Origin: a virus
Taxonomy: Duplodnaviria; Heunggongvirae; Uroviricota; Caudoviricetes
Direction: 5' to 3' (one strand)
Virus record (IMG/VR): IMGVR_UViG_2531839529_000006
DNA: 23,465 nt
Shown here: positions 1,171 through 16,079 of the stretch, in pieces
How the letters are laid out: each line of letters starts with the position of its first letter
Position numbering within the stretch: the stretch's first letter is position 1
Notes under the pieces: model-generated
The model's database searches: none
What the model was told of the DNA's origin: nothing
Seen by the model: only the letters and a program-made list of their open reading frames with translations
Position numbers and translations under genes: made by a program

Positions 1171-1502
1171 ATTGATAACAGAGGGCGTTGCAGCGGGGTT
1201 GTCACTTAAGCGTATGGTCAACCTGACAACCCGGTGTCCTCAACGGGGGAAGGAATAACCCCGCCATACTTACCGCCGCACCATTTCGCGGATTGCCACA
1301 ACCGGAAGCGCACGGTCGAACTAAATTTAACGACACCGTACAGAGAGACCAATTTCGCCGTGCGCTTTCGCGTTATGCCCTGACTTTTCAGGGACATATC
1401 CTTTCAGTAAACTGTCAGTGCCGGATGTTCACCCGTGTCCGGCGCACGCACTCCACCTGACCCGTGGAGAACTCCTTAATTACCAACCCTCAGGAGGGTG
1501 AA

Positions 1503-1781
1503 ATGGATAAAAAGCAAATTGAGGCCCTGCAATCTATTATTGAAAAACAAGATGAAGCTATCAGGATTCTTTCATATCGCACTGATATGATACTAAATAT
1601 GCTTTCTGCATTAACGGCTGCGCTTGGTGGTACAAAAACAAACGTATACCGCGAAGTTGTTATTCAACAGATAGATAAATTTGAAAAAACCATACCAGGT
1701 ATTAATGCTCATCTTGCAGAACAAGAGAAAGACCATGCTCTTATGGCAATTTCTTCAGTAGCTCTCCCGAAAGTTGAGTAG
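1503..1781 (+). CDS. Hypothetical coiled-coil protein, antisense to the early-left operon
   Basis: ATG at 1503 preceded by AGGAGG about 7 nt upstream; 92 aa (MDKKQIEALQSIIEKQDEAIRIL...). Its 3' end overlaps the convergent minus-strand gene by about 40 nt. No family recognised. Confidence 0.35.
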   Translation: MDKKQIEALQSIIEKQDEAIRILSYRTDMILNMLSALTAALGGTKTNVYREVVIQQIDKFEKTIPGINAHLAEQEKDHALMAISSVALPKVE

Positions 1782-2154
1782 TTTTAATTGTTGTTTTGAA
1801 ATAATCACTGCTTTCACATTTGAGTGATTTCATGGCAATCCAAATGCGGGCCTCTGTGCCTGCATTTGGTTCCAGTTGCTGTAGACGTTTTGCGTCTTCC
1901 AAAAGTAAGGCGATAATGTGTTTCAGCTTCTCATCATTTGCTTGATTCTTGTTTTCAGGCGAATTCTGTCCGCCGAATAGGCGCTTCTCTTCATACAGAC
2001 CTATAAAGGCACGACGCACGTTACCGGATATAGTATCGATGGTTTCTTTTTCTACGGTACTCAGGTCAAGAGTCGCCAGTTGAGAGCGAACCACATTCGA
2101 TGCCATTTCCTGGAATGGTACTGGTAAATCTTTAAATTCCATCGTCAACCTCAT
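1741..2154 (-). CDS. Hypothetical early-left protein, 137 aa
   Basis: ORF whose ATG overlaps the stop of the upstream gene in a TGATG arrangement, suggesting translational coupling. An in-frame ATG at 2142 with GAGG upstream is an alternative start. No family recognised. Confidence 0.55.
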   Translation of the reverse strand: MRLTMEFKDLPVPFQEMASNVVRSQLATLDLSTVEKETIDTISGNVRRAFIGLYEEKRLFGGQNSPENKNQANDEKLKHIIALLLEDAKRLQQLEPNAGTEARIWIAMKSLKCESSDYFKTTIKTTQLSGELLKKLP

Positions 2155-2387
2155 CAGTCAGTGTTTCTGGTTAACCAGCGACGCGCGCCAGCTTCAGTTT
2201 TAAACGTTTTGCTTCTGGTATACGTCATCGCGGTAAACGTGCCGTCCTGGTTGGGGAACACGCCACATACCAGAGATTCGTTGTTGCCAAGATTGAGCAT
2301 ATCCATGTTGACCTCATTTCCCCTTAACGCCGGGGTAGCGGAACAAAAACCTGCTGCATAGTTATTAAAGTTGAACCCTGCCGTCAT
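2154..2387 (-). CDS. Hypothetical early-left protein, 77 aa
   Basis: First ORF downstream of the leftward promoter/operator region; GAGG Shine-Dalgarno about 9 nt upstream of the ATG at 2387. Confidence 0.5.
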   Translation of the reverse strand: MTAGFNFNNYAAGFCSATPALRGNEVNMDMLNLGNNESLVCGVFPNQDGTFTAMTYTRSKTFKTEAGARRWLTRNTD

Positions 2388-2571
2388 GTTCTTACGCCTC
2401 GGGCTGGCTACTTAACCCCTGACCACTGCCTGGTAACTCGAAGTATTGCCCTGCATTCTGTGGGGCGGGGTGGGTTGGTATGAAAAGAAGGATACCCATA
2501 GGTATTTAAAAAGTAAATACCCGTGGGTAAATTTTTGCGGTGTCTTAACTGGTGACTAGTTGTTTGGTGAG
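2388..2571 (-). promoter_or_regulatory. OL/PL-like leftward early promoter with two operator palindromes
   Basis: Inverted repeats ATACC-CATA-GGTAT (2492..2505) and TACCC-GT-GGGTA (within 2516..2530). On the minus strand a -35 TTTACC (2531..2526) and -10 TAAATA (2508..2503) are 17 nt apart and overlap the operators. Confidence 0.5.
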
Positions 2572-2991
2572 CTATGATGCGTTTTGTGCTTTCTTTTTAC
2601 GGATTTCTTCGTAGATCATATTGTAATACTGTTTTTTCTCTTCAAGAGTTTTTAATAATTTATCCGCTTCACTTTCTGGCAGTTCGTCTAAGAGATCTAA
2701 AAAAATACGTTGTCGTGGCGTTAGAACCCTTGTTTCATAACTGGAGGCTGTGTTCGTTGATGATGAAACGATACCATCCATCCATCCCCGGGGTAACCCA
2801 AAGGACTCTTCGATAATCTCCACCATATCATCAGCGATCCGTTTTTTTCCCTTTTTCCCCTCTGGGTACAACATTCTTGATACATAAGAAGGCTCGCGCC
2901 CGATCTTTCTGGCCACGTTAACCGCTTTACCATCGCATTTCTCATCACGAATTTTGATGAGTTGCTGTCGTCTAAATTCATATTTGTCCAT
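2572..2991 (-). CDS. DicA-like prophage repressor (HTH, functional CI/C2 analogue)
   Basis: 139 aa with an N-terminal HTH (GKAVNVARKIGREPSYVSRM). The C-terminal segment LTPRQRIFLDLLDELPESEADKLLKTLEE resembles the DicA C-terminus as recalled. Divergent from a Cro-like gene, with operators on both sides. No Shine-Dalgarno; a TATTAT -10 sits about 7 nt upstream of the ATG. Confidence 0.75.
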   Translation of the reverse strand: MDKYEFRRQQLIKIRDEKCDGKAVNVARKIGREPSYVSRMLYPEGKKGKKRIADDMVEIIEESFGLPRGWMDGIVSSSTNTASSYETRVLTPRQRIFLDLLDELPESEADKLLKTLEEKKQYYNMIYEEIRKKKAQNAS

Positions 2992-3091
2992 AGGTAAATA
3001 ATAGATGCGATTACCGCAAGGTAAACAACCTGTGGGTATTGACTTTTGTTTACCTGTGGGTATTCTTTGCTGTGTTTACTAAGGAGTAGCT
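2992..3091. promoter_or_regulatory. OR-like divergent promoter/operator region
   Basis: Direct repeats ACCTGTGGGTATT at 3028..3040 and 3052..3064, each containing a TACC-N4-GGTA palindrome. Rightward -35 TTGACT (3039..3044) and -10 TATTCT (3062..3067) with 17-nt spacing, then AAGGAG SD (3079..3084) for the Cro-like gene. Confidence 0.6.
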
Positions 3092-3373
3092 ATGGAAGAA
3101 TTAAGAATATTTCTCAATTCTCTTTCGTCAGATGAACAGCGTATGTTTGCATGCGAGTGTGGTACCAGCATCGGTTATCTAAGAAAGGCATTGAGTAAAG
3201 GTCAAGTGTTAGGGGCATCGTTATGTGTCCTTATTGAGCGAGCCAGTAATGGTGAAGTTACACGTCAGCAACTAAGGCCTTTTGATTGGATGAATATTTG
3301 GCCCGAGCTGGAAGATACCAAAACGTTAACACAACCACTTTCTAGGAGCTTGATTCATGAAAATCAAGCATGA
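3092..3373 (+). CDS. Cro-like DNA-binding protein (YdaS/DicC-type)
   Basis: 93 aa, strong SD AAGGAG 7 nt upstream, divergent from the repressor. Motif pattern ...GTSIGYLRKAL...LIERASNGEVTRQQLRPFDW... is typical of YdaS/Cro-type phage regulators. Confidence 0.7.
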   Translation: MEELRIFLNSLSSDEQRMFACECGTSIGYLRKALSKGQVLGASLCVLIERASNGEVTRQQLRPFDWMNIWPELEDTKTLTQPLSRSLIHENQA

Positions 3374-3782
3374 ACACATCCGCATGGCGATGAATGTCTG
3401 GGCGCATCCGGACGGCGAAAAAGTGCCGGCTGCGAAAATTACCAAAGCGTATTTCGAGCTGGGAATGACGTTCCCGGAACTGTATGACGACAGCCATCCG
3501 GAAGCCCTGGCCCGTAATACCCAGAAAATTTTCCGTTGGCTGGATAAAGACACCCCTGATGCTGTTGAAAAAATGCAGGCTCTGTTACCGGCGATCGAAA
3601 AGGCGATGCCGCCTTTGCTGGTGGCCCGTATGCGTAGCCACAGTTCTGAATATTACCGTGATATCGTCGAACGGAGGGATCGGCTGGTGAAGGATGTCGA
3701 TGATTTTGTTGCGTCAGCGGTTGTTTTGTATGACCAGATGAATCGCGGCGGCCCGGCAGGGAATGCTGTGGTGATGCACTAA
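3357..3782 (+). CDS. YdaT/CII-like regulatory protein
   Basis: 141-aa ORF directly after the Cro-like gene, overlapping it by 17 nt; AGGAG SD. Position and size match YdaT-family genes of Rac-like immunity regions. Confidence 0.55.
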   Translation: MKIKHEHIRMAMNVWAHPDGEKVPAAKITKAYFELGMTFPELYDDSHPEALARNTQKIFRWLDKDTPDAVEKMQALLPAIEKAMPPLLVARMRSHSSEYYRDIVERRDRLVKDVDDFVASAVVLYDQMNRGGPAGNAVVMH

Positions 3783-3804
3783 AAGCACGGTGTTCGGGGG
3801 TTTT

Positions 3805-4767
3805 ATGAGCAGCAAGCTTCATGGTCTTGTCTGGGAAGGGTGCGCCTTCACCGGCATGATCTTATCCAGGGTGGCGGTTATGGCCCGTCTTGCAGACTAC
3901 AGCAATGACGAGGGCGTGTCATGGCCTGCCATTGAAACTATCCGGCGTCAGATCGGTGCAAGAAGTGAATCCACAGTGAAATCGGCTATTGCAGAACTGG
4001 CGAAAGAGGGCTGGCTGACGAAGGAAGAGCGTAAGGTCGGTGGGCGTAATGTAAGCAATATCTATCGGCTTAATGTGGAAAAACTCGAAGCAGCTGCGGC
4101 GGCGGCGCGTGAGTCATATAAACCGAAAAGAAAAATTAGCCCGGCAAAAAATGACCCGTTAACAGTTGACCCGTCAAATATTGACCCCTCAACGGTTGAC
4201 CCGTCAAATTTTGATGGATCAACTGTTGATAAAAAACTGCCGATTAGGGGGCCGATGATTGACCCCGATCCGTCAGTATTAAAACCTGATCCGTCAGATA
4301 AAAGATCTTCTTGTCCGGACGCTTCGCAACCGGACCCGCAGACGGCTGAACAGGATTTTTTAACCCGACACCCTGACGCGGTTGTGTTCAGTGCGAAAAA
4401 ACGCCAGTGGGGAAGTCAGGAAGATTTGGTGTGCGCACAGTGGATCTGGGGACGAATCGTGAGTCTTTACGAGCAGGCGGCCAGCTATGATGGCGAGATC
4501 ACTAGACCGAAAGAACCCAACTGGACAGCATGGGCCAATGACGTTCGCACAATGCGGATGCTGGATGGCAGAACTCACAGACAAATTTGTGAAATGTTTG
4601 GGCGTCTCCAGCGGGATTCGTTCTGGGTAAAAAACATCATGAGTCCGGCAAAACTCCGGGAAAAATGGGATGAACTGGTTATCCGCCTGGGGCGTTCGCC
4701 TGCGCAGCGTTGCGTGAATCACATTTCTGAACCGGACACTGAAATACCGCCGGGATTCAGGGGGTGA
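3805..4767 (+). CDS. Replication initiator (lambda O-like, N-terminal HTH) carrying internal origin iterons
   Basis: N-terminal winged-helix region (VSWPAIETIRRQIGARSESTVKSAIAELAKEGWLTKEE). The internal protein repeats DPLTVDPSNIDPSTVDPSNFDGSTVD are encoded by DNA iterons. A GTG at 3790 is an alternative start. Followed by a DnaC-like loader gene. Confidence 0.7.
   Translation: MSSKLHGLVWEGCAFTGMILSRVAVMARLADYSNDEGVSWPAIETIRRQIGARSESTVKSAIAELAKEGWLTKEERKVGGRNVSNIYRLNVEKLEAAAAAARESYKPKRKISPAKNDPLTVDPSNIDPSTVDPSNFDGSTVDKKLPIRGPMIDPDPSVLKPDPSDKRSSCPDASQPDPQTAEQDFLTRHPDAVVFSAKKRQWGSQEDLVCAQWIWGRIVSLYEQAASYDGEITRPKEPNWTAWANDVRTMRMLDGRTHRQICEMFGRLQRDSFWVKNIMSPAKLREKWDELVIRLGRSPAQRCVNHISEPDTEIPPGFRG
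4151..4230. repeat. Origin-like iterons inside the initiator gene
   Basis: Tandem 14-15-bp repeats: GTTGACCCGTCAAAT twice exactly (4166..4180 and 4196..4210), plus the variants ATTGACCCCTCAACG, ATGACCCGTTAACA and TTTGATGGATCAACT, followed by an A-rich stretch. Same arrangement as ori-lambda inside O. Confidence 0.6.
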
Positions 4768-4773
4768 CGTGTC

Positions 4774-5520
4774 ATGAAAAACATTGCGGCAGGCGGCGTT
4801 CTTGAACGTATCCGAAGACTGGCTCCGCCACATGTAACCGCCCCATTCAGAACGGTAGCGGAGTGGCACGAGTGGCAACTTGCTGAAGGCCAGAAACGTA
4901 GCGAGGAGATCAACCGCCTGAATCGCCAGTTGCGGGTGGAAAAAATTCTGAATCGCTCAGGCATCCAGCCGTTGCACCGTAAATGCTCGTTTGCGAATTA
5001 CCAGGTGCAGAACGACGGTCAGCGATACGCGTTGAGCCAGGCGAAATCTATCGCTGATGAACTGATGACCGGATGCACAAATTTCGCGTTTAGCGGAAAA
5101 CCTGGTACCGGGAAGAACCACTTAGCAGCAGCTATCGGGAATCGCCTGCTGAAAGACGGTCAGACAGTGATTGTGGTTACCGTGGCTGATGTTATGAGTG
5201 CCCTCCACGCCAGCTATGACGATGGGCAGTCAGGCGAAAAATTTTTGCGGGAACTGTGCGAAGTGGATCTGCTGGTTCTTGATGAAATTGGCATTCAGCG
5301 CGAGACGAAAAACGAGCAGGTGGTACTGCACCAGATTGTTGATCGCCGGACAGCGTCGATGCGCAGCGTGGGGATGCTGACAAACCTGAACTATGAGGCC
5401 ATGAAAACATTGCTCGGCGAGCGGATTATGGATCGCATGACCATGAACGGCGGGCTATGGGTGAATTTTAACTGGGAGAGCTGGCGTCCGAATGTCGTCC
5501 AGCCAGGAATTGCGAAGTAA
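4774..5520 (+). CDS. DnaC-like helicase loader / replication ATPase (IstB-like)
   Basis: Walker [16 protein letters not shown] and Walker B LLVLDEIG; 248 aa; immediately downstream of the initiator. Confidence 0.85.
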
Positions 5521-5542
5521 TTTTTACCGGGAGAAAAATTTA

Positions 5543-6304
5543 ATGGAGACTGTTTTTGACGCACTGAAAGCAATGGGAAAAGCCACATCCATAGAACTTG
5601 CTGCGCGACTTGATATCAGTCGTGAAGAAGTGCTGAACGAACTATGGGAACTGAAAAAGGCTGGTTTTGTTGATAAAAGCGCGTACACCTGGCGTGTGGC
5701 TGATAACAACGTTCAGCAGGAACAGCCAGCGCAGGCAGAACTGCCGGAAGAAATCACCACAGCAACAGTAGCGAAAATCTCAGAGTGCGATTTAACCGCG
5801 ACGATTGAACAACGAGGACCACAAACGGCTGATGAGCTGGCTACATTGTTTGGTACCACATCACGCAAAGTGGCTTCAACGCTGGCAATGGCAATCAGCA
5901 AAGGTCGTCTGATTCGCGTAAATCAGGGCGGTAAATTTCGTTACTGCATACCGGGCGATAATTTACCAGCAGAGCCGAAAGCAGCATCGGTAGCGGAAAC
6001 TGATGGTAAGGCCTTTCCTCATACCGCAGGTGTTGCGTTACCAGTACAGGAGGCTGCAACACAGGAAGATATTAAAACAGAAACTGTGGCGGACATTGTG
6101 CAGTCGCTGCCATCGTTTACTGAAACGCGAGCGGATGACCTGGTTTTACCATCACTGCATATGGCAAACCGCGAACTGCGTCGGGCGAAAAATCATGTCC
6201 AGAAGTGGGAGCGAGTCTGCGCCGCGCTGCGGGAGCTGAACAAGCACCGGGATATTGTTCGACAGATTACTGATTCTTCCCGCCGTGTTGTATCGGAAAA
6301 GTGA
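5543..6304 (+). CDS. Hypothetical protein with N-terminal winged-helix domain
   Basis: ORF with SD GGGAGA upstream of the ATG at 5543 (the ORF track starts it at 5492). N-terminus [41 protein letters not shown] looks like a winged helix. Confidence 0.6.
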
Positions 6305-6319: not shown

Positions 6320-6751
6320 ATGGCAAAAGTATTTACACAAGAAGAGCGGGAAAAAATTAAAGGGCAGGTTGTTGAGCTAGTACGCCGGAGTGGGCGCGAG
6401 ACGTTACGGCAACTGGAAGCCAAGACAGGTGCGACAAGATATCTGATGAGCGTTCTCGCCAGAGAGCTGGTTGCCAGTGGCGATGTATACAACTCTGGTT
6501 ACGGGTTATTCCCGTCTGAACAGGCTCGTAAGGACTGGCAAAATGCCCGCAAAAAACTATCCAGGGCAAAGGTGAAGAAACCATCTGTGGTTGATCCGGA
6601 CCTTATCTGGTCATTACCAGACGGAGAAATACGCCGCTACGACAGGCGTCTGAACATAATCTGTCGCGAGTGCCGGAAGAGCGAAGTTATGCAGCGTGTG
6701 CTGGCGTTTTATCAGAATGGTTTTCGAGAGAGGCTTGGAGATCAGGGATGA
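6320..6751 (+). CDS. Hypothetical protein
   Basis: ORF with GGAGG SD about 6 nt upstream of the ATG at 6320; last gene of normal GC content before the AT-rich cassette. Confidence 0.55.
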   Translation: MAKVFTQEEREKIKGQVVELVRRSGRETLRQLEAKTGATRYLMSVLARELVASGDVYNSGYGLFPSEQARKDWQNARKKLSRAKVKKPSVVDPDLIWSLPDGEIRRYDRRLNIICRECRKSEVMQRVLAFYQNGFRERLGDQG

Positions 6752-6944
6752 ATAGAACGATGAAGGATGGAAGCTACATATTCTCGGTACTAAGATTTAT
6801 TTTTCTGACACAAAATGACCATTTGGCGTTACATAATCCCAAAAAAACGTATCAAAAATCTCAAAATGCGTTACGATTAGAGAGTATTTTGATTCTGCGT
6901 GCTCATTTTTTGATTGCTGTGGCTTTTTGTTGTGGGAGTGTTGA

Positions 6945-8099
6945 ATGGATTATTTATCAGAAGTGTTAAAAATCATTGAAGGTGCAACAAAGGCAAATGC
7001 TTCGATGGCTAGTAATTATGCTGGGTTGCTGGCAGATAAGCTCGAACAAAAAGGGGAGGTCAAGCAAGCCAGAATGATAAGAGAAAGGTTGCTTAGAGCT
7101 CCCCAGGCGTTGGCAGGAGCTCAAAGGGCTGGAGGTGGGATATCTCTGGGCTCATTACCGGTAGATATTGATAGTCGACTCAACACTGTTGATGTCAGTT
7201 ATCCTAAATTAGACAGTTCAGAGATTTTTCTGCCTGCAGCAATCAGTACCCGTGTTGAAGAGTTTATCACTAATGTTCAACGTTATGATGAGTTTGTTAA
7301 AGCTGATGCAGCATTGCCGAGTCGTATGCTCGTGTATGGAAAGCCAGGAACAGGTAAGACTATGTTATCTAAGTACATCGCTACCCGCTTAGATTTTCCA
7401 CTTCTTACAGTGCGTTGCGATACTTTGATTAGTAGTTTATTGGGACAAACCAGCAAAAATCTTAGACAGGTTTTCGATTATGTAATGCAGAGGCCATCAG
7501 TGCTTTTTTTAGACGAATTTGATGCTTTAGCTGGAGCAAGAGGTAATGAGAGAGATATAGGTGAGCTTCAGCGAGTTGTCATTTCACTATTGCAGAATAT
7601 GGATGCGGCATCAGAGGATACGGTAATTATTGCCTCAACTAACCATGAGCAACTTCTGGATCCTGCAATCTGGAGGCGATTTAGCTTCAGAATTCCAATG
7701 CCTCTGCCTGACATACATCAGAGAGAGTTAATTTGGAAAAATCGTTTAAAGAATATGATATGTAGCGATCTAGATTTAAGTGATTTATCAAGAAAATCGG
7801 AGGGATTATCCGGAGCAATAATTGAACAGGTGAGCTTGGATGCACGTAGGGATGCAGTTATTGAAGGTGCAAGTGTGATAAATCACCATAAATTGTATAG
7901 GCGTTTGTATCTTGCGCAATCGCTTATGGAAGGTGTAAATTTAAGCACTTACGAAGATGAAATTCGTTGGTTACGTTCTAAAGATAAAAAATTATTTTCT
8001 ATCAGAGTTCTTGCTAATTTGTACAAACTTACATCAAGAGTAATTTCAAACATTCTGAAGGAGTCAGGAGCATATGAGCAGAAGGGGTACACAGTTTAG
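6945..8099 (+). CDS. AAA+ ATPase (classic AAA clade), 384 aa; first gene of a candidate defense pair
   Basis: Walker A GKPGTGKT, Walker B VLFLDEFD, sensor-1 IIASTNH and arginine-finger region AIWRRF are all present. GGGAG SD upstream. AT-rich codon usage compared with the flanking phage genes. Confidence 0.85.
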   Translation: MDYLSEVLKIIEGATKANASMASNYAGLLADKLEQKGEVKQARMIRERLLRAPQALAGAQRAGGGISLGSLPVDIDSRLNTVDVSYPKLDSSEIFLPAAISTRVEEFITNVQRYDEFVKADAALPSRMLVYGKPGTGKTMLSKYIATRLDFPLLTVRCDTLISSLLGQTSKNLRQVFDYVMQRPSVLFLDEFDALAGARGNERDIGELQRVVISLLQNMDAASEDTVIIASTNHEQLLDPAIWRRFSFRIPMPLPDIHQRELIWKNRLKNMICSDLDLSDLSRKSEGLSGAIIEQVSLDARRDAVIEGASVINHHKLYRRLYLAQSLMEGVNLSTYEDEIRWLRSKDKKLFSIRVLANLYKLTSRVISNILKESGAYEQKGYTV

Positions 8100-10338
8100 T
8101 AACGCAAAAGTTACAAACCCAATGTTAAGAATCCCTTTTTCCAGTAGTGACTTGGGTGCAATAGTAAACGCTGGCGGTGGGGCAAAGGTATTGGTTGATG
8201 TAACAGCCGAATATAGACAAGGGCTAGTAAGAAATTTAACAACCAGTAAACATTATTTAGAATCCAAACTTTCAGAGTACCCTGGAAGCTTGGGTACTTT
8301 GGTTTTCAAATTAAGAGACCAGGGAATAGCCAAAACGCATAGGCCGAACAAAATTGCTCAAGAGGCTGGATTGCAAAATGCCGGTCATGCCAAAATAGAT
8401 GAAATGTTGGTTGCTGCTCATGCCGGCTGTTTTGACGTATTAGAGTCAGTCATTTTACATCGGAATATTAAAGCGATTTTGGCTAATCTAAGCGCGATTG
8501 AGCGCATTGAACCTTGGGATGAGAATAGGAAGGTTCCAGGAGGCACTGATGGTTTGTTTGAATCATCAAACATCCTTGTACGACTATTTGAGTACACAGG
8601 TGAAGATGCAACTTACAACAACTATGAAAACGTTATTTCTATATTAGAACAACACGGAGTTAAATATGATGAGATTAGACCAAAATGTGGTCTTCCCTTA
8701 TTAAGGATAATGGATTTATCCCCAAATGATAGATATATATTAGACATTCTCATTGATTACCCGGGTATAAGAACGTTAATTCCAGAACCAAAATATTCAG
8801 CATTCCCGGTTAGTGTAAGTGATTCTGTTGGCATTGAAACAAATAGCTTTCCCGTACCATCAGAAGAATTACCCATTGTTGCTGTATTTGACACTGGGGT
8901 AAGCCCCATCGCGGCAACAATTACTCCTTGGGTAGTGAGTAGGGAAACATACGTAATTCCTCCTGATACGAGTTATGAACATGGGACTATGGTGTCTTCA
9001 TTGATATCAGGCGCTCATTTTTTAAATGACAATCATCCATGGATTCCTGATACAAAATCTAAAATCCATGATGTTTGTGCTTTAGATGAAAATGGATCTT
9101 ATATATCAGATTTAATTCTGAGGCTAGCAGATGCTGTAAATAAAAGACCAGATATAAAAGTCTGGAATTTGTCTTTGGGAGGCGGACCATGTAATGAGCA
9201 GATGTTTAGTGATTTTGCGATGGAGTTAGATCGGCTCAGCGATAAATTTGGTATTTTGTTTGTAGTTGCTGCAGGTAATTATGTAGATGAACCTATACGT
9301 ACATGGCCAAATCCTGATCCGCTTGGAGGTGCTGATTTAATTTCCTCTCCTGGAGAGTCAGTCCGAGCACTAACAGTTGGTTCAGTTTCTCATATGGAAG
9401 CTAATGATGCTTTAAGTGAAATTGGAACACCGACACCATATACTCGTCGTGGCCCTGGGCCTGTATTTACTCCAAAGCCAGATATAATCCATGCTGGCGG
9501 TGGGGTTCATAGACCTTGGAATGTAGGAGCAAGCAGTTTAAAGGTCGTAGGGCCAGATAATAGGCTTTGCTCTAATTTTGGTACTAGTTTTGCTGCTCCA
9601 ATTGTGGCAAGTTTAGCTGCGCATACATGGCAGAGAATAGCCACTAATTCAGACTTTAATGTTTCACCATCATTGATTAAAGCATTATTAATTCATTCCG
9701 CTCAATTATCTTCTCCTGATTACTCGCCAAGTGAAAGACGCTATTTGGGAGCGGGAATTCCTAATGAGGTTATTGAGACCTTATATGATAGTGATGATAG
9801 GTTTACTCTGATTTTCCAAACATTCTTGGTTCCTGGGGTGAGGTGGAGAAAGGAAAACTATCCCATACCATCGGCACTTATTCAAAATGGAAAATTTAAA
9901 GGTGAGATTGTAATTACTGCTGCATATGCACCACCACTGAACTCTAATGCCGGCAGTGAATATGTTCGCGCGAACGTAGAGCTAAGTTTTGGCTTAATTG
10001 AGAATAATACTATAAAAGGAAAAGTACCTATGGAAGGAGAAAACGGTCAATCTGGATATGAGAGAGCTCAAATTGAGCATGGTGGAAAGTGGTCACCAGT
10101 AAAAATTCATCGCAAGGCATTTAATAAAGGAATTACTTCGGGTAACTGGGCTCTTCAAGCTAAAACAACGTTGAGAGCGAATGAACCGGCCTTAATGGAG
10201 CCTTTACCTGTAACTATTGTAGTAACTTTAAAATCATTAGATGGAAACACACAAGTTTATGCTGATGGCGTAAGAGCTTTAAATGCTAATAACTGGGCTC
10301 ACTATCCATTGCCTGCTCGTGTGCCAGTTTCCGTATAA
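8074..10338 (+). CDS. S8 family subtilisin-like serine protease, 754 aa, no signal peptide
   Basis: Catalytic motifs in canonical order: Asp (VAVFDTGVS), His (YEHGTMVSS), oxyanion Asn (VVAAGNY), Ser (GTSFAAPIVA). Strong SD AAGGAG..AGGAG; overlaps the ATPase gene by 26 nt. About 265 aa N-terminal and about 200 aa C-terminal of the protease core are unassigned. Confidence 0.85.
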   Translation: MSRRGTQFSNAKVTNPMLRIPFSSSDLGAIVNAGGGAKVLVDVTAEYRQGLVRNLTTSKHYLESKLSEYPGSLGTLVFKLRDQGIAKTHRPNKIAQEAGLQNAGHAKIDEMLVAAHAGCFDVLESVILHRNIKAILANLSAIERIEPWDENRKVPGGTDGLFESSNILVRLFEYTGEDATYNNYENVISILEQHGVKYDEIRPKCGLPLLRIMDLSPNDRYILDILIDYPGIRTLIPEPKYSAFPVSVSDSVGIETNSFPVPSEELPIVAVFDTGVSPIAATITPWVVSRETYVIPPDTSYEHGTMVSSLISGAHFLNDNHPWIPDTKSKIHDVCALDENGSYISDLILRLADAVNKRPDIKVWNLSLGGGPCNEQMFSDFAMELDRLSDKFGILFVVAAGNYVDEPIRTWPNPDPLGGADLISSPGESVRALTVGSVSHMEANDALSEIGTPTPYTRRGPGPVFTPKPDIIHAGGGVHRPWNVGASSLKVVGPDNRLCSNFGTSFAAPIVASLAAHTWQRIATNSDFNVSPSLIKALLIHSAQLSSPDYSPSERRYLGAGIPNEVIETLYDSDDRFTLIFQTFLVPGVRWRKENYPIPSALIQNGKFKGEIVITAAYAPPLNSNAGSEYVRANVELSFGLIENNTIKGKVPMEGENGQSGYERAQIEHGGKWSPVKIHRKAFNKGITSGNWALQAKTTLRANEPALMEPLPVTIVVTLKSLDGNTQVYADGVRALNANNWAHYPLPARVPVSV

Positions 10339-10352
10339 CAACTATATAAATC

Positions 10353-10380
10353 AAACCCGCTGTAGCGGGGTTGATTTATT
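10353..10380 (+). terminator. Rho-independent terminator closing the ATPase-protease cassette
   Basis: GC-rich hairpin CCCGC-TGTA-GCGGG followed by a T-rich tract, 15 nt after the protease stop codon. Confidence 0.6.
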
Positions 10381-10746
10381 TGTGGGTGTGTTTTATAAAA
10401 ATACCGCCCATACACAACAAAATACAAAAAGTATTACAGATAAAAAAGGAGCGTAATGTGCAGATTTGTTGTTTTCCATATTTACTCACCTTAATATGAT
10501 TAATCCCGATAAGATTGTTATTTCAGCGGTTTTCAAATGAAATATTATGCTAATCTGGCAGATTTGCATAACATTAAAATTTAATTTATCTAACCGCTTT
10601 TAATAATAAGCGTTGTATTTTTATCCCAGCAATCTGTTGTTTGGTTTTTATTCCATTAAGGTGGGGCTTTACACTGGAGCCAGTTTATTTATACTTCATA
10701 CGTCAGCCTGAACAACTGGCACCTGCTGCGCCAGCAGAGAAAACAG

Positions 10747-11025
10747 ATGGCGCACGATACCAAATTTTACAATTCGGATAACTCTGCCGCCCCTGCCAGC
10801 AGGCACGGGCGGCGTTCTCATGCATTCAAATCTGACTGGTATCAGCACGACCCCTGCACCGAAGAACAGGCTGAATGGCTCATTCAGTGTTACCGCGGGC
10901 GCGGATGCGAGGTTAAAAAAGCCCTTAGCCTCGACTACCGTCACTGGATAATCTCCGTCAGGCTCCCTTACTCAGAACGGCCAGCGCGTCCGTCCCGCAC
11001 ATTCCAGCAACGGATCTGGAGGTAA
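10747..11025 (+). CDS. Hypothetical protein, 92 aa
   Basis: ORF ending 1 nt before the GTG start of the next gene; weak SD. No family recognised. Confidence 0.4.
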   Translation: MAHDTKFYNSDNSAAPASRHGRRSHAFKSDWYQHDPCTEEQAEWLIQCYRGRGCEVKKALSLDYRHWIISVRLPYSERPARPSRTFQQRIWR

Positions 11026-11026
11026 T

Positions 11027-12085
11027 GTGCGGGTATTACTTCGATCTGTTCTGGTACCGGAACTCGGTCTGGTTATCGTTAAGCCAGGCCGTGAATCAAT
11101 GTCAGCATTCCATAACGGCAGAATACTGGTGGAGCCGGAACCAAAAAGCATGCGTAATCTGCCGTCCGGGGTCGTTCCTGCCGCTCGCCAGCCGCTGGTG
11201 GAAGACAAAACATTGCTGCCGTTTTTCAGTAACGCACGGGTGATTCGTGCTGCTGGTGGTGCTGGTGCATTGTCTGACTGGCTGTTGCGCCATATTAAAT
11301 CCTGCCAGTGGCCACACGGCGATTATCATCACAGCGAAACCGTCATTCACCGTTATGGTACCGGCGCAATGGTGTTGTGCTGGCACTGCGACAACCAGCT
11401 GCGTGACCAGACATCCGAATCACTCGGGCAACTTGCTCATCAAAACCTGTCAGCATGGATGATTGACGTCATCGGTCACGCAATAAGCGGTACGCAGGAG
11501 CGTGAATTATCTCTGGCTGAATTATCCTGGTGGGCGGTCCGCAATCAGGTGGCGGACGCGCTACCGGAAGCGGTATTACGTCGTTCGCTGGGGTTGCGTG
11601 CGGAAAAAATTCGCTCTGTGTACAGTGAAAGCGACATCATACCGGGAGAGCAGACCGCCACCAGCATACTGAAACAGCGCACAAAAAATCTTGCGCCGCT
11701 GCCTCACGCCCACCAGCAACAGAACCCACCACAGGAAAAGACGGTGGTCAGCATTGCCGTTGATCCCGAGTCACCGGCTCAGTATTTCCAGCGCCAGAAA
11801 TCACAACGGGAAGAGATGCCTGTATACACGCGCTGGGTAAAAACGCAGAAATGCATGACGTGTGGCAATCAGGCAGATGATCCGCATCACATCATTGGTC
11901 ATGGACTGGGAGGGATGGGAACAAAGGCTGATGATTTGTTTGTTATTCCGCTGTGCCGTAAATGCCATAGCGAACTACACGCCGGGGTAAAAGATTTTGA
12001 AGAAAAACACGGCAGCCAGCTGTTGTTGCTGATTCGTTTTTTAATGCACGCGAGAAATTCGGGTGTTCTGAAGTGGAAAGCATAA
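11027..12085 (+). CDS. DUF968/YdfU-like protein with C-terminal HNH-like zinc motif
   Basis: 352-aa ORF with GTG start and GGAGG SD 5 nt upstream. The C-terminus (KCMTCGNQADDPHHIIGHGLGG...IPLCRKCHSELH) has an HNH/YbcO-like CxxC...HH...CxxCH pattern. Sits directly upstream of rusA. Confidence 0.6.
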   Translation: MRVLLRSVLVPELGLVIVKPGRESMSAFHNGRILVEPEPKSMRNLPSGVVPAARQPLVEDKTLLPFFSNARVIRAAGGAGALSDWLLRHIKSCQWPHGDYHHSETVIHRYGTGAMVLCWHCDNQLRDQTSESLGQLAHQNLSAWMIDVIGHAISGTQERELSLAELSWWAVRNQVADALPEAVLRRSLGLRAEKIRSVYSESDIIPGEQTATSILKQRTKNLAPLPHAHQQQNPPQEKTVVSIAVDPESPAQYFQRQKSQREEMPVYTRWVKTQKCMTCGNQADDPHHIIGHGLGGMGTKADDLFVIPLCRKCHSELHAGVKDFEEKHGSQLLLLIRFLMHARNSGVLKWKA

Positions 12086-12466
12086 ATGACTGAACGCATA
12101 GAATTTGTTTTGCCTTACCCGCCAACGGTGAACACTTACTGGCGTCGTCGTGGCAGCACATATTTTGTATCAAAAGCCGGGGAGCGTTATCGCCGGGCAG
12201 TGGCGCTTATTGTTCGCCAGCAGCGGCTGAAATTAAGCCTGTCCGGAAGGTTGGCAATAAAAATTATTGCAGAACCACCGGATAAGCGCCGCCGTGACCT
12301 GGACAATATTCTGAAAGCGCCGCTGGATGCGCTGACGCATGCGGGGTTGCTAATGGACGATGAGCAGTTTGATGAAATCAATATCGTTCGTGGTCAGCCA
12401 GTATCTGGTGGACGTCTGGGGGTGAAGATTTACCCCATAATGCATGAAGAGCAGGTCAAAAAATGA
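12086..12466 (+). CDS. rusA: Holliday-junction resolvase RusA
   Basis: 126 aa. Conserved RusA pattern YPPTVNTYWRR...DKRRRDLDNILKAPLDALTHAGLLMDDEQ...GGRLGVKIY matches E. coli RusA as recalled. Confidence 0.85.
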   Translation: MTERIEFVLPYPPTVNTYWRRRGSTYFVSKAGERYRRAVALIVRQQRLKLSLSGRLAIKIIAEPPDKRRRDLDNILKAPLDALTHAGLLMDDEQFDEINIVRGQPVSGGRLGVKIYPIMHEEQVKK

Positions 12467-13858: not shown

Positions 13859-14908
13859 ATGCTTAATACTGTAAAAATATCCAGTTGTGAGTTAATCAAC
13901 GCCGACTGCCTGGAATTTATCCGGTCGTTACCCGAAAATTCTGTTGACCTGATAGTTACGGACCCGCCGTACTTTAAAGTGAAGCCTGAGGGCTGGGATA
14001 ACCAGTGGAAGGGCGACGATGATTACCTGAAGTGGCTGGACCAGTGTCTGGCGCAGTTCTGGCGGGTGCTGAAACCTGCCGGAAGTCTTTACCTGTTCTG
14101 TGGTCATCGCCTGGCATCTGATATCGAAATCATGATGCGTGAACGCTTCAGTGTGCTGAACCATATTATCTGGGCGAAGCCGTCCGGACGCTGGAACGGA
14201 TGCAACAAGGAAAGCCTGCGGGCGTATTTCCCCGCCACAGAGCGCATTCTGTTCGCGGAACATTATCAGGGGCCGTATCGTCCGAAAGATGCCGGGTATG
14301 CGGCGAAGGGCAGTGCACTGAAACAGCATGTGATGGCCCCGCTGATTTCTTACTTTCGTGATGCGCGCGCGGCCCTGGGGATAACGGCAAAACAGATTGC
14401 AGATGCCACAGGAAAGAAAAACATGGTGTCGCACTGGTTCAGTGCCAGTCAGTGGCAGCTACCGAACGAAAGCGATTATCTGAAATTACAGTCGCTGTTT
14501 GCCCGGGTGGCAGAAGAGAAACATCAGCGCGGTGAACTGGAAAAGCCCCACCACCAGCTGGTGGATACGTATACGTCACTGAACCGGCAGTATGTGGAGC
14601 TGCAGAGTGAATATAAGCATCTGCGGCGGTATTTTGGTGTGACGGCGCAGGTGCCGTACACGGATGTGTGGACACATAAACCGGTGCAGTTCTATCCCGG
14701 GAAACATCCGTGCGAAAAACCGGCAGAAATGCTGCAGCAGATAATCAGCGCAAGCAGTCGTCCGGGAGACCTGGTTGCAGATTTTTTTATGGGCTCAGGT
14801 TCAACGGTAAAAGCTGCACTGGCGCTCGGGCGTCGTGCGATTGGCGTTGAACTGGAGACCGGACGTTTTGAGCAGACAGTCAGGGAAGTTCAGGATTTAA
14901 TCGTTTGA
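13859..14908 (+). CDS. DNA methyltransferase, beta-class amino-MTase, apparently orphan
   Basis: Motif IV DPPY (LIVTDPPYF) near the N-terminus and motif I FxGxG (FFMGSGST) near the C-terminus, the beta-class order. No cognate restriction gene adjacent. Confidence 0.85.
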   Translation: MLNTVKISSCELINADCLEFIRSLPENSVDLIVTDPPYFKVKPEGWDNQWKGDDDYLKWLDQCLAQFWRVLKPAGSLYLFCGHRLASDIEIMMRERFSVLNHIIWAKPSGRWNGCNKESLRAYFPATERILFAEHYQGPYRPKDAGYAAKGSALKQHVMAPLISYFRDARAALGITAKQIADATGKKNMVSHWFSASQWQLPNESDYLKLQSLFARVAEEKHQRGELEKPHHQLVDTYTSLNRQYVELQSEYKHLRRYFGVTAQVPYTDVWTHKPVQFYPGKHPCEKPAEMLQQIISASSRPGDLVADFFMGSGSTVKAALALGRRAIGVELETGRFEQTVREVQDLIV

Positions 14909-14957: not shown

Positions 14958-15033
14958 GGCCCTTTAGCTCAGTGGTGAGAGCGAGCGACTCATAATCGCC
15001 AGGTCGCTGGTTCAAATCCAGCAAGGGCCACCA
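14958..15033 (+). tRNA. tRNA-Ile2 (anticodon CAU, lysidine type), phage-encoded
   Basis: 76-nt cloverleaf GGCCCTTTAGCTCAGTGG...CTCATAA...GGTTCAAATCC...AAGGGCCACCA. 7-bp acceptor stem, anticodon loop CT-CAT-AA, encoded CCA. Resembles ileX/ileZ. Confidence 0.8.
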
Positions 15034-15040
15034 TCACATA

Positions 15041-15117
15041 CCGCCATTAGCTCATCAGGAAAGAGCGCCAGCCTTCGAAGCTGGTTGCGCGGGGTTCAAG
15101 TCCCCGATGGCGGTCCA
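15041..15117 (+). tRNA. tRNA-Arg (anticodon UCG)
   Basis: 77-nt cloverleaf: acceptor CCGCCAT/ATGGCGG, T-arm CGGGG-TTCAAGT-CCCCG, anticodon loop CT-TCG-AA, 3' CCA. Confidence 0.75.
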
Positions 15118-15130
15118 TTATCTGCATCAT

Positions 15131-15207
15131 GCGTTGTTAGCTCAGCCGGACAGAGCAATTGCCTTCTAAGCAATCGGTCACTGGTTCGAATCCAGTACAA
15201 CGCGCCA
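15131..15207 (+). tRNA. tRNA-Arg (anticodon UCU, rare AGA codon reader)
   Basis: 77-nt cloverleaf: acceptor GCGTTGT/ACAACGC, T-loop GGTTCGAATCC, anticodon loop CT-TCT-AA, 3' GCCA. Confidence 0.8.
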
Positions 15208-15442
15208 CACTTATTTTCCCTGGCTCGCTTTTGTGGGCCTTTTTTTTAAATGTCTCACAATTTAGGCGGTTGACTGTTGTCTGGTTTGCGGGGAGTTTGT
15301 TAAAAGAAACTGGCATGGTGAATCCCCCTGTGCGGAGGGGCAATCAGCGAGTAGGTATATGGGATAATCGCGGATTCAGGTGCTGGTACTGAATTCACCG
15401 GGAGGCACCCGGCACCATGCAATGGCACATAGCGCCACTCTC

Positions 15443-15470
15443 CAGCCCCTCTCCGGAGGGGCTGTTTATA
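15443..15470 (+). terminator. Intrinsic terminator-like hairpin
   Basis: 9-bp stem CAGCCCCTC/GAGGGGCTG with TCCG loop, followed by a T-rich tract. Confidence 0.5.
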
Positions 15471-15498
15471 TTGATTTTGTCAGATGTGAGTAAACTGC

Positions 15499-15834
15499 TT
15501 ATGGACTTTGTTGTTTTAGCCCATAAGGACATATTTGCAGAGTGCAACGGTTATTAAAGCATTCATTCAATACGTTATCTGTATTTGTAGGGCATTCCTG
15601 GCTGTTTTTGATTAAATTCCAGAATGTTTTATTGAATGGTACTACGTTGTAAATGGTTACAGGTAGCACTTTGTTATTGAGCATGATGCCTGTGTGAGTC
15701 AGTGTAAATATACTTTCAGGAGGTAAGAAAGCATCCGATTGATACCAGATTATTAATTTTATTTTACTCCATATGACTGAAAAAGATATTCCGCATGATG
15801 GCTGGATAACTGTATCAATCACAATCCACTTCAT
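15499..15834 (-). CDS. Hypothetical moron protein (111 aa) in an AT-rich island
   Basis: Minus-strand ORF with AGGAAA SD about 5 nt upstream of the ATG at 15834. Strongly AT-rich and opposite to late transcription. Occupies the slot after the tRNA trio where stx sits in Stx phages. Confidence 0.5.
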
Positions 15835-16079
15835 TTAGTTTCCTTGTTTATGCCTTGCTGGTGATGTTCTGAAAAGTATAAATGATATTTTTGATTGTAA
15901 ACCATAGAGCAGAATTATTTTTCTGATGTTGTTTATTGTTTATTTAAATGCAGGGTGGTTTATATCTCGTCTTGTAGTTTATCCATGCATATCTGCTTGA
16001 TGATGAGGTTTTTATTTAAGGTATGGTTTTGTGTTTTTTCTGTATTACATGTCAGGTATTTTAAAGAATCATTTTTCAG

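Follow-up and report, generated by a model that had tools for sequence, protein, structure and literature searches.

A gene pair with the features of the canonical IetAS anti-phage system as probable cargo of a lambdoid Escherichia coli prophage

IetAS gene pairs encode an AAA+ ATPase, IetA, and a subtilisin-like protease of the S8 family, IetS; here we describe such a pair in the virus record IMGVR_UViG_2531839529_000006 (Caudoviricetes), a stretch of DNA of 23,465 nucleotides that was analysed at its full length and is referred to below as the window. According to a passage in PMC13069673 that cites Yamamoto 2009, ietAS first entered the literature as a toxin-antitoxin system that stabilises a plasmid, the protease being the toxin and the ATPase the antitoxin. 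The founding members of the family as toxin-antitoxin pairs, the SgiAT system (S026/S025) of Salmonella genomic island 1 (SGI1) and the IetAS system of Agrobacterium pTiC58, both join an AAA-ATPase antitoxin to a toxin that is a subtilisin-like protease, both lie on mobile elements, and both have been described as stabilisation modules and not as phage defences. In SgiAT the protease is rapidly toxic, the ATPase neutralises it, and the pair stabilises SGI1 when an IncA/C plasmid is present (PMC5006074). Other members of the family have been studied as defence systems. In Bacillus cereus, ietAS acts by abortive infection, is toxic on expression of YosG from phage SPbeta, and is escaped by phage mutants that map to the YosG gene (bioRxiv 10.1101/2022.08.27.505566). 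The ietAS pair of E. coli strain ECOR52 has been cloned and tested; on its own it gave limited protection, it acted synergistically with Zorya II, and ietAS is typically located in prophages (bioRxiv 10.1101/2022.08.21.504612). In ietHAS (Liu-DS4), which consists of an SNF2 helicase together with IetA and IetS, defence depends on an active protease, the ATPase behaves as an antitoxin, and cloning of an ietA mutant did not succeed (PMC13069673). Several papers up to 2026, PMC13069673 among them, call the mechanism of ietAS unknown.

The pair in the window is, with high confidence, the canonical two-gene IetAS anti-phage system (Gao_Iet; iteA/iteS at NCBI), carried as prophage cargo. The locus is already known: it is a common E. 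coli allele that has been named both by the Prokaryotic Genome Annotation Pipeline (PGAP) and by PADLOC. Its two genes and their junction are as follows.

6945..8099, + strand: ietA (iteA in PGAP), ATG start, encoding a classic-clade AAA+ ATPase of 384 amino acids; identified by PADLOC, NCBIfam and Pfam.
8074..10338, + strand: ietS (iteS in PGAP), ATG start, encoding an S8 subtilase of 754 amino acids; identified by PADLOC, NCBIfam and protein identity.
8074..8099, + strand: 26-nt overlap of the 3' end of ietA and the 5' end of ietS, from the coordinates of the open reading frames.

Set beside IetAS/Gao_Iet (Gao et al. 2020; PDLC02196 and PDLC02197 in PADLOC, NF042959 and NF042956 in NCBIfam), the window has both genes, arranged in the order of that system, overlapping at their ends and likewise located on a mobile element. 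We could detect no difference from that system, except that the terminator is borrowed from the prophage backbone 15 nt past the ietS stop codon. The IetA and IetS modules are also those of ietHAS, but that system includes a gene for an SNF2-family helicase and the insert in the window has no helicase gene, so it is not ietHAS.

The assignment is carried by profile matches that take in both proteins at essentially full length. IetS matches the PADLOC profile PDLC02197 with an E-value of 4e-300 (residues 12-753 on positions 3-748 of 749), and the NCBIfam equivalog NF042956 ('S8 family anti-phage peptidase IteS') with 1040.7 bits against a cut-off of 900, the whole profile (1-747 of 747) being aligned to residues 15-752. 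PADLOC holds eight separate IetS profiles, and the IetS of the window fits one of them far better than the rest. The protein is 100% identical to an NCBI entry named 'S8 family anti-phage peptidase IteS [Escherichia coli]' (P0001), which belongs to a cluster, formed at 90% identity, that has 1,093 members. IetA matches PDLC02196 with an E-value of 8.9e-143 (residues 1-374 on positions 1-371 of 374) and the equivalog NF042959 ('anti-phage ATPase IteA') with 526.6 bits against a cut-off of 510; this margin is small (16 bits) and the coverage is complete (1-367 of 367). A protein identical to IetA was also found in public data (P0121).

The conserved machinery of both enzymes is in place. In IetA, the Pfam AAA family covers residues 128-253 and the nucleotide-binding motifs lie as follows.

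7338..7361, + strand: Walker A motif GKPGTGKT of IetA, residues 132-139, read from the translation; 24 homologues show no variation at G132 or P134-T139.
7509..7523, + strand: Walker B motif LDEFD of IetA, residues 189-193, read from the translation; L189-D193 are all invariant in the same 24 homologues.

The lysine of Walker A is K138, and the sensor-1 residue N233 and the paired arginines R244/R245 are present and invariant in that alignment. The AAA module (residues 99-310) aligns best with the D2 domain of p97/Cdc48, with further alignments to PAN and FtsH. Ahead of it, a conserved domain is made up of residues 1-95; no Pfam family matched residues 1-100 at E <= 10. In IetS, the catalytic residues D273 (in DTG), H303 (HGT), N402 (GN) and S505 (GTS) are present and invariant in 41 homologues, within a Pfam Peptidase_S8 match at residues 268-544. 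The N-terminus of the protease (MSRRGTQFSNAKVTNP...) is hydrophilic and on direct reading carries no signal peptide, and the enzyme is presumably cytoplasmic.

These results bear out most of what the original prediction, made from the letters of the window alone, had said of the two proteins. It had placed two overlapping co-directional open reading frames at 6945-8099 and 8074-10338, coordinates that proved exact and that are also the PGAP gene boundaries in the RefSeq entry of strain TW10722, where identity over the two genes is 100.0%. It had listed the Walker A, Walker B, sensor-1 and arginine-finger features of the ATPase and a complete Asp/His/Asn/Ser set in a protease without a signal peptide, all of which agree with the alignments and the direct reading given above, and it had likened the pair to IetAS, as the full-length matches over curated cut-offs now confirm. 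Its further suggestion, that the unassigned extensions on either side of the protease core might mark a divergent or undescribed variant, does not hold up. No Pfam family was matched by IetS residues 1-262 or 565-754 at E <= 10, and a profile search of the PDB with IetS returned matches to the S8 core at residues 267-580 only. Homologues that are 50-84% identical, from Morganella, Klebsiella, Pseudomonas, Aeromonas, Burkholderia, Comamonas and Ralstonia, nevertheless keep the length of the protein, at 748-771 amino acids in nearly all of the 120 listed (three have 708-715), and the alignment of 41 homologues has many invariant residues within 1-260 and 565-754. Because the IetS profiles span the whole protein and the homologues keep both extensions, the N- and C-terminal extensions are best regarded as conserved parts of the family and not as the sign of a variant. 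No housekeeping or phage-morphogenesis family, either of which had been named as an outcome that would speak against an acquired defence pair, was matched in the profile searches.

An AlphaFold2 model of IetS (predicted local distance difference test score 81, predicted template modelling score 0.85) divides the protease into four parts, a long helix at residues 45-68 and the three that follow here.

8293..8784, + strand: N-terminal region of IetS, predicted to hold two tandem beta-alpha-beta-beta-alpha-beta (ferredoxin-like) modules, residues 74-147 and 167-237.
8875..9753, + strand: S8 catalytic domain of IetS in the model, residues 268-560, with D273, H303, N402 and S505.
9799..10308, + strand: predicted C-terminal beta-sandwich of IetS, residues 576-745, conserved in the family.

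The multi-domain subtilases KP-43 (1wmd) and pro-Tk-SP (3afg) are 18-21% identical to IetS. Where IetS has two N-terminal ferredoxin-like modules, enzymes of the KP-43/pro-Tk-SP type have one propeptide, and KP-43 and pro-Tk-SP are secreted degradative enzymes that are not known to have an AAA+ partner. On the side of the ATPase, the position of pore loop 1 is occupied by SSLLGQTS (residues 163-170; 7431-7454), which contains no aromatic residue, whereas the counterpart in p97 D2 is W-F. The 24 homologues show little or no variation in this stretch (L165 nearly invariant, L166-G167 invariant). Classic-clade AAA+ unfoldases do not usually have a non-aromatic pore loop 1, and this feature may matter for the control of IetS. 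The domain map offers targets for mutagenesis in the ferredoxin-like modules, the S8 core, the beta-sandwich and the non-aromatic pore loop of IetA.

The two genes also seem to travel together. Their 26-nt overlap suggests translational coupling. Homologous pairs in Pseudomonas aeruginosa and in Salmonella Mississippi have the AAA gene followed by the S8 gene, with overlaps of 41 nt and 20 nt respectively. When the match lists were compared, at least ten IetS and IetA matches apparently came from the same source records, which agrees, indirectly, with linked inheritance. The P. aeruginosa pair has Fic, NERD, AAA_15/AAA_21 and transposase-like genes as neighbours, and relatives of IetS were found on plasmids as well (tblastn against 72,556 plasmids, E <= 1e-20). 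Relatives lie beside defence-type and mobile-element genes and on plasmids; a conserved chromosomal operon outside mobile elements, another outcome that had been named as speaking against the reading, was not seen. In the same plasmid search no Ti plasmid was matched by IetS; the nearest Agrobacterium match was on a plasmid of Agrobacterium vitis, with 25.5% identity over part of the protein (residues 267-738). Among 5,426 complete E. coli genomes, 78 carry ietAS DNA, annotated by RefSeq as iteA/iteS, always chromosomal, in single copy and at least 99.5% identical, and the deposited phage record vB_EcoS-683R6 has the same cassette at the same position with 99.6% identity. In two of the 78 carriers, NZ_AP040205.1 (H88) and NZ_CP196120.1 (H89), the iteS region is annotated as an 'S8 family peptidase' and a 'hypothetical protein', which suggests disrupted alleles.

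The pair sits in a lambdoid E. coli prophage, in the interval that runs from the replication genes to Q. Upstream of it are O-like, DnaC-like, DUF1627 and DUF977 genes, and downstream are an open reading frame of 92 amino acids and genes for DUF968, RusA and the Q antiterminator. The composition of the region sets it apart: GC content is 0.391 over window positions 6716-10703 and 0.495 for the remaining window, and GC content at third codon positions is 0.325 in ietA and 0.270 in ietS as compared with 0.44-0.62 in ten neighbouring genes that were checked. The limits of the insert were set by BLAST against four related prophages that do not have IetAS (L003, L004, L006 and L007), and they enclose the following segment.

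6716..10353, + strand: IetAS cargo insert of 3,638 bp, DNA that the sibling prophages lack, GC about 0.39; from BLAST junctions with these prophages.

At the left junction (6715/6716), the homology of L003, L004 and L007 ends at 6714-6715, in the final codons of the DUF977 gene; at the right junction (10353/10354), the homology of L006 and L007 restarts at 10354. A right boundary at 10688-10703, taken from two sibling prophages, was dropped, since positions 10354-10731 are common backbone in 740 genomes. Within this private 3.6 kb, ietA and ietS are the sole gene content, and limits known to the base make the insert handy for cloning.

What the siblings carry between the same flanks differs from one to the next. 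L004 has QueH and hokD (7441-8499); L003 has eight small genes, hokD and two more genes, one of them for a helix-turn-helix protein (7267-12283); L006 has a cytosine (Dcm) methyltransferase, an ATP-dependent nuclease and Hok (2717-5911); and L007 has a hypothetical protein of 1,210 amino acids and hokD (1496-5932). Because these prophages share the flanks but hold other inserts, ietAS can be read as cargo that was gained by horizontal transfer and occupies a variable slot, bounded on one side by the DUF977 gene and on the other by the backbone formed by the hok 3' end and DUF968; the existence of siblings without the pair contradicts the idea that ietAS is a fixed core gene of the prophage lineage. 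A Hok toxin gene is present in nearly all sibling versions of the DUF977-to-hok slot, which looks like an exchange point for defence and addiction genes; the window gives a natural example of it in that role.

The right-hand edge of the insert shows how the cassette has been fitted into this slot.

10356..10369, strand not assigned: GC-rich hairpin CCCGCTGTAGCGGG followed by a T-rich tract, from a terminator scan.
10354..10731, + strand: AT-rich non-coding backbone segment outside the IetAS cargo, lying 3' of hok/hokD in other lambdoid prophages.

The insert ends 15 nt past the ietS stop codon and, with no terminator of its own, probably uses the hok-type terminator of the backbone. The hairpin at 10356-10369 probably ends ietAS transcription; it aligns with the hairpin 3' of hok/hokD in L006 and L007 and, judged by that alignment, belongs to the shared prophage backbone and not to the cassette itself. 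The segment 10354-10731 is present at a coverage of at least 80% in 740 genomes, as against 78 genomes with IetAS. The hok gene is absent at the ietAS locus, and it seems that the IetAS insert displaced the hok portion of the slot but left its 3' end and terminator standing. The picture of the locus that had been drawn from its sequence, an AT-rich and compositionally distinct block lying between the replication module and the nin/Q region and representing cargo acquired at a moron hotspot, is in keeping with the GC calculations, the flanking gene families and the sibling prophages. It had also credited the pair with ribosome-binding sites and a terminator of its own. The former are there, as GGGAG before 6945 and AAGGAG/AGGAG before 8074; the terminator is a real hairpin that follows hok elsewhere, and that part of the claim falls.

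At the other edge, ietA is preceded by a spacer.

6752..6944, + strand: AT-rich upstream spacer of 193 bp, GC 0.352 by count, ending in the ietA ribosome-binding site GGGAG.

An open reading frame at 6670-6969 (+ strand, 99 amino acids, GTG start) covers the 3' end of the DUF977 gene and this spacer and overlaps the start of ietA; phage record ON470595 gives a part of it the name 'kinase (fragment)'. With no NCBIfam match and no PGAP/RefSeq call, it is probably spurious as a gene.

The prophage that carries the pair shows damage at its far end. The gene for the terminase large subunit (gpA, 21941-23465) has a frame change near 22470, where a sequencing error is possible, and is interrupted at about 23090; in strains that share this junction, RefSeq annotates the sequence beyond it as an IS66-family transposase. 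With a frameshift and an IS66 interruption in its terminase gene, the prophage is probably defective.

These observations and the published work on relatives suggest how the pair might operate. Coupled synthesis from the overlapping genes would yield an AAA+ ATPase together with a multi-domain subtilase whose catalytic residues are intact. By analogy with the published relatives, IetS would be toxic alone and neutralised by active IetA, its protease activity would be needed for defence, and defence would take the form of abortive infection triggered by a single phage protein. In the uninfected lysogen, IetA may bind or remodel IetS in an ATP-dependent manner and so keep it silent. A protein of a superinfecting phage would then disturb this control, allowing IetS to cleave proteins of the host (or of the phage), and the growth of the cell would be arrested, or the cell would die, before progeny could be released, so that clonal lysogens, and with them the prophage, would be protected. 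The tandem ferredoxin-like modules and the beta-sandwich of IetS might serve as regulatory or partner-binding parts. The lack of an aromatic residue in the IetA pore loop leaves the step by which IetA controls IetS uncertain in detail. One form that this step might take, and which we think unlikely, is that IetS is an uncleaved, zymogen-like subtilase whose tandem modules serve as an inhibitor or ligand sensor within the protein, with IetA, given its L-L-G pore loop, holding or resetting this lock and not threading substrates, and with the phage protein freeing the lock. If true, this would give IetAS its first mechanistic model and would be a new kind of control over a subtilase; it would concern the family as a whole and would not turn the locus into a new system.

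Several points weigh against reading the cassette as an anti-phage system that works in this manner. Its phenotype is taken by analogy from relatives, with no confirmed match between the allele of the window and either the ECOR52 system or that of Gao et al. 2020 (strain ECOR52 was not found among the 60 carriers listed of the 78), and the protection that ECOR52 ietAS gave alone was limited in extent (bioRxiv 10.1101/2022.08.21.504612). A consensus scan detected no consensus sigma-70 promoter in 6752-6944, nor was a convincing -35/-10 pair seen there by eye, which leaves expression of the cassette in the lysogen unsupported. The N-terminal fold of IetS is, in the model, a generic one in which a prodomain-like and an ACT-like reading are inseparable, and the L-L-G pore loop of IetA appears to fit a processive unfoldase poorly, a point of weak force. 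Finally, as the prophage looks defective, it may by now be the host and not a phage that the cassette serves.

The history of the family invites another explanation, in which the cassette is above all an addiction (toxin-antitoxin) module by which the prophage is kept in the chromosome, any anti-phage effect being secondary. It was as toxin-antitoxin systems that pTiC58 ietAS and SGI1 sgiAT were discovered, and the stabilisation of SGI1 in the presence of an IncA/C plasmid (PMC5006074) points the same way, as does the near-invariance of the allele across 78 genomes; the slot, moreover, usually has a hok-type toxin in sibling prophages and is therefore a seat of addiction genes. SgiAT expressed from its own promoter, however, gave no post-segregational killing (PMC5006074), and homologues show abortive infection that is phage-specific and depends on a trigger (bioRxiv 10.1101/2022.08.27.505566). 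Stabilisation and defence are compatible roles, and the difference between them is one of emphasis and not of mechanism; that addiction is the primary role strikes us as possible, if doubtful. A proteasome-like arrangement, in which IetA selects and unfolds substrates for an ATP-dependent protease and lone IetS is toxic since it is ungated, would draw on the kinship of the IetA AAA module with unfoldases of the p97/Cdc48 D2, PAN and FtsH type, on the gene overlap, which suggests coupled synthesis and a possible complex, and on the large conserved non-catalytic domains of IetS, which could dock a ring. Subtilases are not chambered peptidases, though, and the non-aromatic pore loop weighs weakly against processive threading, and we consider such a machine distinctly unlikely.

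It is scarcely credible that the cassette performs a step of the phage life cycle, for example as a maturation protease with its ATPase, or that it is an inert and decaying passenger, even if its location in a prophage that is damaged at the terminase gene might be cited for one or the other. The pair lies in the early/nin region, outside the head gene cluster; the profile matches are to S8 and IetS only and to no prohead protease family; the related prophage L001 has a separate S49 peptidase next to its portal gene; and sibling prophages manage without the pair. Decay is contradicted by the state of both open reading frames and of the catalytic residues, which are intact, and by DNA identity of at least 99.5% in the 78 genomes. 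The interpretation that we prefer is, then, that of a canonical IetAS defence pair held as prophage cargo.

Elsewhere in the window the prophage has a number of features of its own kind. A full-length DicF antisense small RNA (sRNA) lies at 1118-1169 on the - strand (Rfam 76.7 bits, gathering threshold 48), in a dicB-type region at the left of the prophage. On the + strand, 3' of Q, the gene for an N6/N4 DNA methyltransferase (13859-14908) is a typical accessory gene of this prophage group. Three tRNA genes (14958-15207, + strand) follow the Q antiterminator and DNA methylase genes; the first is called tRNA-Met (CAT) by ARAGORN and tRNA-Ile in the RefSeq homologue, and the others are tRNA-Arg (TCG) and tRNA-Arg (TCT). 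Such a cluster is typical of the late-region island in Stx-like lambdoid phages, and no stx genes were found downstream of it. Just 3' of the tRNA cluster is a full-length STnc100 sRNA (15284-15473, + strand; Rfam 132.4 bits, gathering threshold 47). A second AT-rich pocket (GC 0.336 at 15501-16000) holds an open reading frame of 111 amino acids on the - strand (15499-15834) that has no Pfam match and whose counterpart in RefSeq, in strain WP7-S17-ESBL-04, is the anti-adapter protein IraM; it looks like another small cargo gene. Ahead of the holin gene, at 16080-17948 on the + strand, is the gene for a carbohydrate esterase of the SASA family (NanS-p-like, 622 amino acids, with DUF1737 and DUF6645), which is again a typical accessory gene.

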